Below are positions 15,790 through 40,378 of a stretch of 64,000 nucleotides of DNA, piece after piece (position 1 is the stretch's first letter; each line of letters begins with the position of its first letter). The stretch is from Vicugna vicugna (Eukaryota): contig MU057521.1 in the NCBI GenBank assembly GCA_013265495.1, positions 124,001 through 188,000 on the forward strand, given 5' to 3'. Below the pieces are notes generated by a model. It saw only the letters and a program-made list of their open reading frames with translations, had not been told where the DNA came from and did not search any database. The translations under genes and the position numbers were made by a program.

Positions 15790-15823
15790 ATGGATTTCAA
15801 GGAATGTGGATATAGCCTGGCAA
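15790..15823 (+). CDS. GAD3: GAD3 coding exon 1 ([11 protein letters not shown]+)
   Basis: ATG at 15790 with in-frame upstream TAG (15766-15768), donor A|GTAAGT, phase 1 matches exon 2 acceptor, TATAAA 110 nt upstream. No homology support. Confidence 0.65.
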
Positions 15824-18800
15824 GTAAGTTGAAATTTTGTGAGAAGAAATGAAAATTAAAAGTGCAGACTCTCAAGTCTTTCTTATTTCCTGTGATCATT
15901 GATCATTAACATATTTTGACAGAAGCGTATTAGCAACGTTGTCTTACTTATGCATTTAAAGCAAGCATTTTGTTATTACATATTAATTTAAAGGAGTTTA
16001 GGTTGTAGATCCAATGTGCAGTTGAACTGTTTATAGATTATAATTCCTATGCCAATATATCAGATCTTTTGGTTTCTACATTTCTTTATAAATGTTCTGT
16101 AATACTATTTCATGTATAGAATTTTTTTAATTTCATTTTTTCATGTGATTTTTGTTTCAACTAATTATTTAAAAGAAATAATGCTTCTAAAGCTTTAGTC
16201 GCTTTAGAATTTATTTATCATCATTTATTACTCATTGTCTATAGCAGTGAAACTTAAAAAAAAGCAATTTTCCTCTAGAAAAAAATTTGTACATAGAATT
16301 AACCTAATATGTATCTACTGGGTCAACATGCAGTATGGAAATTTGTTTTAAAATACACTGCATTCTTTGCTAATCATCTCACATTTCTGTAATTTATGCT
16401 GTCTTTTCTTATGCACATTTTTTTTCATGTATCAGGATTTTATGGAAAAAGCTGTAATAGAACACTTTTATTTGTCATACATAAACATTTAAAAATGCTT
16501 AAATGTTGTATCAGTGCTTAAAAATTAAATTAATCTTGCTACAGTCTTAACAAGTGCAATCTGGATTACATAGAGAAACCGCTTATTTCATTTTAAGAAA
16601 GATCCTGTAGAACTGGAAACAATATTACTGAGCTTATAAAAATCAAGACTATGAAAATTTGCCACACATCATTCTGTGACTACTTTGTGTTTTCTCTGTA
16701 TGGCTACAGGCAAGCAAGTTGATTTTATAAATTATAGTTTGTACTTTCTTTTTCCCCCTGTATTGCCTAGAACAGAAAAGGATGCTTAACAATGACTTAT
16801 TTGCTTGATTGGATATTTGGTTTAATACTTTTACTGAAAAAGACCTCAAGACATTATTTTCAAATATTAGTTTTTAAAGCGGATAGGTAACTTAATGGTC
16901 TTTGGGTTCAAACACTTGTCTATGAATTCTAGTTCTGCCATATAAAGCTATTTTTGTTAATAATAACAGTGTCTACATCATAAGCCTGTATGAAGATTGA
17001 ATAGAATAATACATGTGAGATACAACAACGCCTGGGTCATAGTATGTGCTTAATAAGTGTTAATTATTGCTATTACTTAAATTCTTTAAATCTGTTCCTT
17101 TATCTTCATACTGGGAAAAATGTCCTAATACTGTAGGATTATTGTGAGGATTAAAATGTGTGTGGAGCATTTAGGATTCAATGTGTAGCAGACATTGTTA
17201 GATGTAATTAAATGTTACTATGTGTGCAAGGCACTTAAGGATCTTATGTAGTTGGCATTGCTATTTAAATATGATAGGTCTTAATTACTAAATTCCTAAT
17301 CCTCTACACTAAACTGATATGAAACTAATAAGTAAGAATTGTATCATTTGCACTCCATGTGGTTATAAAAGAGCCTTGCATAATTTCAGTAGAATTATTG
17401 CTTCTCTCCAGTTTAGACCTATCCACCAGAGATCACATGTGAATGTAAACAAAAATTTCAGATGGCATGAATTTCTCAGATGCATCTGATTACAGATAAA
17501 AGCAGTAAATACGTATTATCAGCAAGTTTTCATGATCACAAATATTTCCTTTTTCAACGTAGACAGGAAACCGATGAGAAAAAAATCTGTTCATCCTTTT
17601 CAATCAACTGACAAAGATATGAAAAAGGATGCTCATACTGAGGATTTAACGACTAATTTACCAAATTTATCAAATGCTTATGCTTCAGGTATGTATACCA
17701 TTAACAAATATTATTTGCTTTATTCTTTTTATAAAATTCTACATCATCTATGTATTTATTGAAGTAATTATCATTTCCTTAAAATCTGATCCTTTAACGT
17801 GCTTTTAAAAGCATAATTACCAGCTCATTTTTTGACAAGACTGTCAAATAAGGTCCCTCTGGGAGACCTTGAAGGGGCAATTCCTTGGTCCAATAGCATT
17901 AATCTAAAATGGCTTATTTTTCATGAAAACTGTTATCCAATGGGACTTTTAATGATTATTTGTAGGATTTGGACAAATGCTACTTCATTTTGCTGTTTGA
18001 CATAGCCTTTTAATGTCTTTAATTTTTAGTGTTCAAAACCTACCCCATGGTGATTTTCTTTGGCTCTTTAGTTACTGACCTCACTATTTATCTCTCTTTC
18101 TTCCCCCTCTAGATTTATTGCCATCCAAGGATGGCAAAGATTTAACGAAATGCTTTCTGTTACAAGTGGTAAATATTCTTCTGCATTACATCAAAAAGAC
18201 TTTTGATGTTAAGAGTAAAATATTGGACTTTCATCATCCTCATCAACTTCTTGAAGGCTTGGATGGGTTTGACTTAGAACTGTCTGACCACCCTGAACCT
18301 CTGGAGCAGTTGCTTGTTGACTGCACAGATACCTTAAAATATGGTGTTAAAACAGGTGATTTTCAAATTTTTGCACCCCGGCTGCAGACTGAATTAATAG
18401 CCTTGAGTTTACATTTGTGTTGAAAAATACGCCAGTTTTATTCATTTTTATTTAAAACTTTTGTTTAGTTTAAGTTGGTGGTGTCACATATGAATTGCTC
18501 ATTAATTAACAAAGAAAAGTAAATAAAATAATTTTGGGTCAGGGACTTATATCCCAATGGCAAATAATGTACAGTTTTTATTTACTTCTTTTCCTTTATT
18601 TATTTGATTTGATCATATACATTATTGATGCTAAATTGGTTGTCTTTCTAAATCAATAACGTAGAGTACTAAAATTATATATATGTATAATTTGTATATA
18701 CATCCTATATTTTAGAAATTGTGTTTTCTGATTAAATTAACATTATTGTAACTTGATTCTTAACCACTTAAAGCAATGACACTTCCAGGAGCAAATGGTA

Positions 18801-39800: not shown

Positions 39801-40378
39801 CCTTGTAGGAAAACTCGAGATGTATTGTCATTATTCAGATAGTAGACCAAAACATACTACTGCTTTTCCATTCCCTATCTCATTTTACCTCTTTCCCAGA
39901 TACTTTGAATTGCCTGATGAATATGAACAAAATGTCACGCCATTTTCTCTAATGTATTCTTGCACACTTGCATTATTTTGTGAGTTTGGTAGTTGTGAAT
40001 CGGGGAGCAACAAGAGCTGCAGTATGAATTGAGAAAGTGCTGCTTTTTTTTTTCTGTGCTAAGCTGCTTCTTAAAAATTATTCCTGATGGTTTTAAATCG
40101 CCTGCAATTTCCTTCAAGCTAATGATAGTTATGTAGTCATCTAGAATGTGGGACAGTGTTTACTTGTAAAATTTCCTTTTAATGATATTTGCATTTACGC
40201 ACAGATTGCTCCAAAGATTAAAGCACAGATGATAGAGGAAGGTACAGCCTTGATAAGCTACCAGCCATGTGGGGACAGAGTAAATTTTTTTCGAATGGTC
40301 TTTTCTAATCCTGCCACCAGACAAGCAGATGTTGACTATCTTCTTGATGAAATTCAAAGGCTTGGGAAAGACTTATGA
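15790..40378 (+). CDS. GAD3: Glutamate decarboxylase family gene (GAD3 / 'glutamate decarboxylase 1-like'), 15 coding exons, 546 aa
   Basis: Manual splicing gives exons of 34,126,243,91,113,116,80,55,117,65,79,150,108,90,174 nt = 1641 nt, all GT-AG, phases compatible, no internal stop. Motifs [52 protein letters not shown], ending RLGKDL*. Too divergent for the highly conserved mammalian GAD1/GAD2. The symbol is an inference; GAD family membership is secure. Confidence 0.85.
16870..17220. mobile_element. MIR fragments in intron 1
   Basis: MIR core-like tgtgaggattaaa and gtgcttaataagtgtta. Confidence 0.55.
17563..17688 (+). CDS. GAD3: GAD3 exon 2 (NRKPMRKK...NLSNAYAS)
   Basis: Acceptor tttttcaacgtAG, donor CAG|GTATGT, phase 1/1; its end aligns with GAD67 FSNLFAR-D. 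Confidence 0.8.
18113..18355 (+). CDS. GAD3: GAD3 exon 3 (DLLPSK...KYGVKTG)
   Basis: 243 nt, long pyrimidine tract + AG, donor [20 protein letters not shown] motif as in GAD67. Confidence 0.95.
20891..20981 (+). CDS. GAD3: GAD3 exon 4 ([11 protein letters not shown]...ANTNM)
   Basis: 91 nt, tttttcctAG / AT|GTGAGT. Confidence 0.95.
23785..23897 (+). CDS. GAD3: GAD3 exon 5 (FTYEIAPVF...GIFSPG)
   Basis: 113 nt, atAG / CTG|GTAAGA. Confidence 0.95.
24211..24326 (+). CDS. GAD3: GAD3 exon 6 (GGSISNL...FVSEQ)
   Basis: 116 nt, tcttccatAG / CAA|GTAAGT. Confidence 0.95.
25989..26068 (+). CDS. GAD3: GAD3 exon 7 (GHYSVKKAA...KCDER)
   Basis: 80 nt, AAG acceptor after a pyrimidine tract / AAG|GTATGT; PLP-stacking His. 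Confidence 0.95.
26400..27610 (-). mobile_element. Highly decayed L1 in intron 7
   Basis: L1-like gagcatccttatctgattcctgactttaa near 27555. Confidence 0.5.
27802..27829 (+). repeat. (GA)n microsatellite
   Basis: Directly visible. Confidence 0.95.
28102..28156 (+). CDS. GAD3: GAD3 exon 8 ([18 protein letters not shown])
   Basis: 55 nt, tttttaAG / AAG|GTATGT. Confidence 0.92.
28670..28786 (+). CDS. GAD3: GAD3 exon 9 (GQTPF...WMHVD)
   Basis: 117 nt, caccAG / [22 protein letters not shown] and HVD motifs. Confidence 0.95.
29594..29658 (+). CDS. GAD3: GAD3 exon 10 ([10 protein letters not shown]...GIER)
   Basis: 65 nt, tgtAG / AAG|GTGAGA. Confidence 0.95.
29761..29839 (+). CDS. GAD3: GAD3 exon 11 ([13 protein letters not shown]...REK), PLP lysine
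   Basis: 79 nt, cacctAG / AAA|GTAAAT; Schiff-base Lys codon AAA at 29789-29791. Confidence 0.95.
32395..32544 (+). CDS. GAD3: GAD3 exon 12 (catalytic loop YLFQPDK, QCGRH)
   Basis: 150 nt, cttttcAG / AAG|GTAGGG. Confidence 0.95.
35080..35505 (+). mobile_element. ERVL-type solo LTR (LTR16-like)
   Basis: ccctgaggccatgcttcc; attaaa; ccccatcttggtgtctgc...gaggacc terminus pattern. Confidence 0.55.
36548..36817 (-). mobile_element. hAT-Tip100 MER45-like element
   Basis: Ends with gcccatgaaaccagctctg, resembling the antisense MER45 terminus. Confidence 0.5.
37025..37132 (+). CDS. GAD3: GAD3 exon 13 (GTYGFE...FDAE)
   Basis: 108 nt, tacAG / GAG|GTAAGG. Confidence 0.95.
38448..38537 (+). CDS. GAD3: GAD3 exon 14 ([13 protein letters not shown]...LHK)
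   Basis: 90 nt, tttAG / AAG|GTAAGT. Confidence 0.95.
40205..40378 (+). CDS. GAD3: GAD3 exon 15, terminal coding part (IAPKIKA...RLGKDL*)
   Basis: 174 nt to TGA, cacAG acceptor; substrate-binding Arg in NFFRMV. Confidence 0.95.

Follow-up and report, generated by a model that had tools for sequence, protein, structure and literature searches.

The stretch of DNA analysed here, referred to below as the window, comprises 64,000 nucleotides of a Vicugna vicugna contig (GenBank assembly GCA_013265495.1, contig MU057521.1, positions 124,001 to 188,000, forward strand). Short stop-to-stop frames resembling glutamate decarboxylase (GAD) are strung along its plus strand from 15.8 to 40.4 kb, and five of six match the Pfam family PF00282. 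They belong to a single gene at window positions 15790–40378, whose 15 coding exons splice to a coding sequence of 1641 nt for 546 amino acids, with the terminal TGA as the sole stop codon. We identify this gene as GAD3, the third vertebrate GAD gene, and hold its orthology to be close to certain. GAD3 was described in fishes and tetrapods, with a truncated N-terminus and with losses in human and chimpanzee, in Scientific Reports (Grone and Maruska, 2016; PMC4962313), which agrees with the background given in the original prediction (present in fishes and tetrapods, lost in hominids).

Exons were located by tblastn of two full-length proteins named ‘GAD1-like’, from Ovis (P0006) and from Diceros (P0023, the rhino GAD3 of the text below), against the window, and splice sites were placed afterwards. 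All 15 coding exons were matched on the plus strand, exon 1 with P0023 alone. Exon 1 (15790–15823, 34 nt) begins with the ATG at 15790 and ends at a GT donor; 12 of 13 residues are identical to the N-terminus of P0023 by tblastn, and the start is the same in an alpaca gene model (P0456). Exon 2 (17563–17688, 126 nt) encodes a divergent N-terminal region, and exon 3 (18113–18355, 243 nt), which matches PF00282 in part, opens a gapless alignment to GAD67, the GAD1 product. The substrate-pocket loop, including Ser144, falls in exon 4 (20891–20981, 91 nt). Next come exon 5 (23785–23897, 113 nt), exon 6 (24211–24326, 116 nt), which carries a Cys210 that is Tyr in nearly all relatives, and exon 7 (25989–26068, 80 nt) with His243. 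After exon 8 (28102–28156, 55 nt), Asp325 lies in exon 9 (28670–28786, 117 nt). Exon 10 (29594–29658, 65 nt) precedes exon 11 (29761–29839, 79 nt), which has the NPHK motif with Lys357, the lysine that binds pyridoxal 5'-phosphate (PLP). The catalytic loop (Tyr386, Gly385, Pro390) is encoded by exon 12 (32395–32544, 150 nt). Exons 13 (37025–37132, 108 nt) and 14 (38448–38537, 90 nt) follow, and exon 15 (40205–40378, 174 nt) carries Arg519 and the TGA. Exons 2, 5, 8, 10, 13 and 14 likewise rest on tblastn together with the splice model.

All 14 introns are bounded by GT and AG, each with a pyrimidine-rich tract ahead of the acceptor, and together they measure 22,948 nt. Downstream, candidate polyadenylation signals are ATTAAA at 40599 and AATAAA at 41326. 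The reading frame and every splice site are preserved, which supports the view that the gene is intact. The exon coordinates, exon number, GT-AG introns, protein length and roughly 23 kb of intron in the original prediction were all right by tblastn and the splice model. Its description of the introns as laden with repeats was borne out in part, by a spot check that found one dispersed repeat in intron 12.

A search with the translation of the largest GAD-like piece yielded 66 proteins out of 146 candidates, and the majority are named ‘glutamate decarboxylase 1-like’. They span mammals, reptiles, amphibians and fishes, with a Camelus ferus entry foremost at 97% identity. The spliced window protein is identical at 543 of 546 residues to the RefSeq model XP_006205863.1 (P0456, ‘glutamate decarboxylase 1-like [Vicugna pacos]’), which has the same length (546 amino acids), start and exon content and matches PF00282 at 1.5e-129. 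The three differences, window residue first, are K81E, N433D and R447K. This identity of 99.5% agrees with the earlier recognition of the source as a probable camelid and points to a lamine, either alpaca or a close relative of it; the three differences may mean a different individual or a sister species among the lamines. Against the Camelus RefSeq models (504–516 amino acids) there are 7–10 differences per 504–516 aligned residues and no insertions or deletions. Identity is 91.1% to pig, 88.0% to rhino and 87.5% to sheep GAD3; it is 64.9% to sperm-whale (Physeter) GAD1 over 538 aligned residues and 58.0% to alpaca GAD2. The camelid GAD3 gene is thus already known and annotated. The novelty implied by the original prediction is not supported, since GAD3 of mammals, along with its loss in hominids, has been in print since 2016 (PMC4962313) and the alpaca model differs from the window protein at only three residues.

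Two Camelus models differ in exon content. The 504-residue RefSeq model of Camelus dromedarius (P0490) joins exon 1 to exon 3, skipping the 126-nt exon 2 in frame, which suggests an alternative isoform. The 446-residue Camelus ferus protein EPY82719.1 (P0001) is without the residues of exons 7 and 8 and of exons 10 and 11, each of these two omissions keeping the frame. Its C-terminus also differs, and it carries nine inserted residues. The skipped exons are present in the Camelus models of RefSeq, and the odd structure of P0001 is probably a gene-prediction artefact and not biology.

To place the gene among its paralogues, rhino GAD3 was compared with the whole genome (2.03 Gb), giving 40 exon-wise matches over six contigs. 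The window contig (C317; the window is C317:124001–188000) has 12 matches, at GAD3. C12403, with nine matches and, at exon 3, 72% identity to GAD3, is presumably the GAD1 locus, judging by its translations. C3565 has eight matches and is GAD2, as its exon retrieves GAD2-named proteins including alpaca GAD2. C5184 and C6071 have five matches each, with GADL1 and CSAD, respectively, as the best match in the PDB. C3223 has one weak match and was given no label. Since the GAD1, GAD2, GADL1 and CSAD loci of the genome sit on other contigs, the window gene is truly a third GAD gene, present in single copy. Its 14 introns also show that it is not a retrocopy.

The chromosomal neighbourhood points the same way. 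GAD3 has been reported to sit between MC4R and CDH20 (PMC4962313). We scanned for long frames across the 124 kb before the window and the 70 kb after it, and found an intact 352-codon frame at C317:40375–41430 (minus strand) with a match to human MC4R chains (E 4e-213) and also to Pfam 7tm_1. This MC4R gene is upstream of GAD3 on the same contig, in divergent orientation, 98,360 bp from the GAD3 ATG; within the window itself no frame of MC4R size and no further gene was seen. On the other side, a classical-cadherin cytoplasmic tail lies at C317:776689–776868 (plus strand; PF01049, 1.4e-30), 612 kb past the GAD3 stop, and is the one match on this contig among 24 to PF01049 genome-wide. An atlas look-up of this tail gave generic ‘cadherin Y-type LIR’ clusters (scores 0.83–0.89) and no CDH20 name. 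The published neighbourhood is therefore found on the MC4R side, as the synteny expected of a GAD3 orthologue, and the cadherin side is consistent with it though unnamed.

For phylogenetic analysis, the window protein was aligned with 54 proteins picked by hand from about 500 to span taxa (55 rows, 590 columns). These were 27 proteins named ‘GAD1-like’ or short proteins named ‘GAD1’, 10 GAD1, 12 GAD2 and five tunicate and annelid outgroups; incomplete models, P0001 among them, were omitted, and the set holds no GADL1 or CSAD rows. GAD2 rows were retrieved with the genome's own GAD2 exon; a Ciona GAD query gave no protein named GAD2 among the 120 matches listed. For GAD1 and GAD2 of this genome, named orthologues were used in place of the proteins themselves. 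A wider search with rhino GAD3 had 13,695 matches (E ≤ 0.001), whose representatives at 50% identity merge paralogues and were kept out of the tree. The tree comes from a careful maximum-likelihood search with IQ-TREE, and a quick tree agrees with it.

GAD3 forms a clade of 28 rows with support 100/99, beside GAD2 (100/100) and GAD1 (92/90); the branching order among the three is weakly supported (66/34). The sister of the window protein is the alpaca row (100/97), and the two lie among the camelids (100/100) and, more widely, the artiodactyls. Several rows in the GAD3 clade carry the name ‘glutamate decarboxylase 1’ at their source: gar (542 amino acids), Xenopus laevis (542 amino acids), Esox (556 amino acids), Fukomys and the Camelus models. 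We relabelled these as GAD3 after the quick tree, so the count of labels is post hoc, which the branch support is not. An approximately unbiased (AU) test rejected GAD1 and the four camelid rows as one clade (288 log-likelihood units worse, p-AU 2.5e-5), a grouping with GAD1 being one of the outcomes that the original prediction had named as refuting it. Against PDB chains, rhino GAD3 scores 852.6 bits with GAD67, 759.6 with GAD65 (the GAD2 product), 560 with CSAD and 543 with GADL1; the first two are far higher, and it is on these scores that we exclude GADL1 and CSAD as identities of the window gene.

These results bear on whether the gene could instead be GAD1 or GAD2 itself, or have arisen from one of them as a recent duplicate or retrocopy. 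The database names lend themselves to that reading (‘glutamate decarboxylase 1’ on the Camelus models, ‘glutamate decarboxylase 1-like’ otherwise), as does the fact that the best solved relative of GAD3 is GAD67. It is opposed by the separate GAD1 and GAD2 loci, by identities that reach only about 65% to GAD1 and 58% to GAD2, by the clade support and the adjoining MC4R and, for a retrocopy, by the introns. A GAD1 or GAD2 identity is refuted by the maximum-likelihood tree and the AU test, and we give this alternative a negligible probability. The claim of a functional GAD3 orthologue in the original prediction thus stands as to orthology, through the tree, MC4R synteny and separate GAD1 and GAD2 loci, and as to intactness; that the gene is functional is something we infer.

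The window gene agrees with published vertebrate GAD3 (PMC4962313), which forms a third clade apart from GAD1 and GAD2, has a short divergent N-terminus and MC4R as a neighbour, and has exon junctions in common with GAD1 and GAD2. The mammals listed in that paper include horse, rabbit, rhesus, orangutan and platypus, and no camelid; in gar GAD3, the first exon is non-coding.

From exon 3 to its end the window protein and GAD67 align gaplessly, with their numbering offset by 48 residues, as stated in the original prediction, so that K357, S144 and R519 pair with K405, S192 and R567; exons 1 and 2 are not alignable. GAD67 (594 amino acids) has 48 N-terminal residues that the 546-residue window protein is missing, and the remaining N-terminus is unrelated. 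Rhino GAD3 also aligns gaplessly to the GAD67 chain 2okj. Seven residues, in GAD67 numbering Lys405, Tyr434, His291, Asp373, Arg567, Ser192 and His404, are kept in 28 of 28 GAD3 rows. We take His291 and Arg567 of GAD67 to be the equivalents of CSAD His191 and Arg466, and GAD67 Asp373 (window Asp325) to be a conserved active-site residue. In the available part of PMC3546353, Lys405 (window Lys357) is the PLP lysine and Tyr434 (window Tyr386) the catalytic-loop tyrosine. The available part of a preprint (10.1101/2020.09.25.308866) places Ser192 (window Ser144) and His404 (window His356) in the substrate pocket, and gives PLP stacking as the role of CSAD His191 (at our GAD67 His291, window His243) and the holding of the leaving carboxyl group as that of CSAD Arg466 (GAD67 Arg567, window Arg519). 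The same part of the preprint states that CSAD has Phe and GADL1 has Tyr at the Ser192 site, and that glutamate is blocked there. Because GAD3, unlike those two, has Ser at this site, its pocket is of the GAD type.

GAD67 (PDB 2okj, 3vp6) has the PLP lysine, the catalytic tyrosine, Gly433, Pro438 and Ser192 in common with the window protein, and GAD65 (PDB 2okk) has the same fold family and catalytic residues. At GAD67 position 292 the window protein has Tyr, not Phe, in the comparison with GAD65. CSAD and GADL1 (PDB 6zek, 2jis, 6enz) are group II PLP decarboxylases of acidic amino acids with the same catalytic set of His, Lys, Tyr and Arg, and differ in the Phe or Tyr at the pocket site where the window protein has Ser. 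From its 65% identity to GAD67, with which it aligns gaplessly, we expect the window protein to be a homodimeric PLP-dependent group II decarboxylase of 546 amino acids. In it, PLP would form an internal aldimine with Lys357, the side chain of glutamate would fit into a pocket bordered by Ser144 and His356, and Tyr386, which lies on the mobile catalytic loop, would donate a proton to the intermediate, leading to release of gamma-aminobutyric acid (GABA).

A different substrate is one alternative to glutamate. The gene would then be intact and expressed, with an enzyme preferring some other acidic amino acid (for instance aspartate, cysteine sulfinate or cysteate) like GADL1 and CSAD, and there would be no GABA route. 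The 2016 GAD3 paper itself raises this possibility (PMC4962313), and GAD3 is an old, fast-evolving paralogue that departs from GAD1 and GAD2 at 30 of the 187 columns invariant in them. One pocket residue alone does not set specificity either, judging by the CSAD F94S experiment in the available part of the preprint (10.1101/2020.09.25.308866). Yet the Ser at GAD67 192 is found in every GAD3 row, the surrounding loop and His404 are kept, and the bit scores of rhino GAD3 lie far closer to the two GADs than to CSAD and GADL1. On this evidence we think another substrate preference unlikely.

The catalytic loop bears on regulation. Four of its positions distinguish GAD67 from GAD65 (PMC3546353, available part), and the window protein has Arg431, Gly433, Pro438 and Leu441 (GAD67 numbering): two of the GAD67 type, none of the GAD65 type (Ser433, Gln438 and His441) and two of its own, GAD67 having Cys and Gln at 431 and 441. 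With its GAD67-type Gly433 and Pro438, the loop points to a holoenzyme that is stable and constitutively active, and not to one that inactivates itself like GAD65. We also predict no N-terminal targeting shared with GAD65 or GAD67, as about 48 GAD67 residues are missing and what remains of the N-terminus bears no sequence relation to theirs. For the window GAD3, the dimer, substrate, product, constitutive activity and expression are what we infer from these likenesses.

Constraint was gauged from columns invariant in all 22 GAD1 and GAD2 rows, of which the window protein keeps 157/187. Other placental GAD3 rows keep 155–161, and non-placental rows 161–172. When the five outgroup rows are required to agree as well, 115 of 122 columns are kept. 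Such protein-level proxies make purifying selection, which the original prediction read from the open frame, plausible for the window gene.

Several observations weigh against a constrained, expressed and active GAD3. Placental GAD3 tip branches are 0.045–0.16 long versus 0.01 for GAD1, with a placental stem of 0.23. In mammals, GAD3 of the window type thus evolves some 5–15 times faster than GAD67 by tip branch length, in a chromosomal neighbourhood that also differs. The window protein has changed at 30 of the 187 invariant columns, and its Cys210 in exon 6 (GAD67 Tyr258) faces Tyr in 52 of 53 other GAD1, GAD2, GAD3 and outgroup rows; this Cys occurs in the window and the alpaca model alone, the Camelus models retaining Tyr. 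Upstream of exon 1 there is no CpG island and no evident promoter. For window positions 23700–33600, 24 sequencing runs were listed, of which 20 hold the stretch or part of it and none is recorded as RNA, which is no evidence either way; 18 of the 24 hold at least half of its words, and the shares are 0.13 and 0.10 in two runs without a label that may by guess be RNA. Loss of GAD3 is on record for hominids, mouse, rat and squirrel (PMC4962313), and several mammalian GAD3 models are flagged ‘LOW QUALITY PROTEIN’, e.g. P0002 (Neofelis), P0028 (Monodon) and P0029 (Balaenoptera). These flags may reflect frame disruptions, hence further independent losses in a felid and cetaceans, and together with the known losses they imply that GAD3 is dispensable in some lineages. 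The rodent loss is not order-wide, because African mole-rats have GAD3-type proteins (P0019, P0021 and P0024, from Fukomys damarensis and Heterocephalus glaber, 90–91% identity over exon 3) and Fukomys falls in the GAD3 clade.

Could the frame be open in a gene that is silent or in early decay in the lamine camelids, a relic intact by chance or released from constraint only recently? The change of Tyr to Cys common to the window and alpaca would fit this, as would a lamine branch about twice that of Camelus (0.0126 + 0.0046 versus 0.0026 + 0.006, small numbers) and the repeated loss of GAD3 in other mammals (PMC4962313). However, there is no stop or frameshift across 1641 nt and every intron is canonical, Camelus differs at only 7–10 residues and by no indel, every catalytic residue checked is kept, and the GAD1/GAD2-invariant columns are retained as in other placental GAD3 rows. 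By a rough estimate from background divergence figures, not computed from data, neutral drift after lamines and Camelus parted would have left several times more amino-acid changes as well as frame-breaking indels; a literature search for a neutral divergence between the two groups gave no usable figure. We therefore consider decay improbable, though a shade less so than a switch of substrate. That the window gene is an expressed, active glutamate decarboxylase seems reasonably likely from its sequence. Overall, a single-copy lamine camelid GAD3 in its ancestral place beside MC4R, encoding a PLP-dependent glutamate decarboxylase, is our favoured account and a probable one.

The window as a whole is AT-rich, with G+C of 30–48% and a maximum of 0.485 at 62001–64000. 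The repeat in intron 12 (about 33707–34401) is a dispersed element of about 680 bp, with 39 other scored copies of 78–87% identity elsewhere in the genome, out of 630 first-look candidates. About 12.6 kb past the GAD3 stop, a 620-codon frame at 52989–54851 (minus strand), which contains the C-terminal portion of an RVT_1 reverse-transcriptase domain (E 3.4e-17), looks like a fragment of ORF2 of a long interspersed nuclear element (LINE). A frame at 53476–54051 (plus strand) overlaps it on the opposite strand. Among the 13 window frames of at least 110 amino acids, only GAD3 exon 3 and this reverse-transcriptase fragment were recognised, the other 11 not having been run against family libraries.

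A literature search found no functional study of a mammalian GAD3 and no report of enzyme activity for any GAD3; subscription journals lay outside it, so this absence is weak. In the available part of a pig growth genome-wide association study (PMC8845347), GAD3 is only a positional candidate beside MC4R. The window makes the question of what mammalian GAD3 does no more testable than existing annotations do. Its value is that of a clean, fully resolved example, with exons, catalytic residues and neighbours in one place. A more specific picture, which we offer as speculation and think doubtful, is an expressed, constitutively active and untargeted cytosolic camelid GAD3 that would make GABA outside GAD65 and GAD67, in which the lamine Tyr210Cys change beside the cofactor-binding stretch may have shifted cofactor handling or stability. 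If this were true, livestock would be a natural place to learn the role of a third mammalian GAD, human and mouse being without GAD3.

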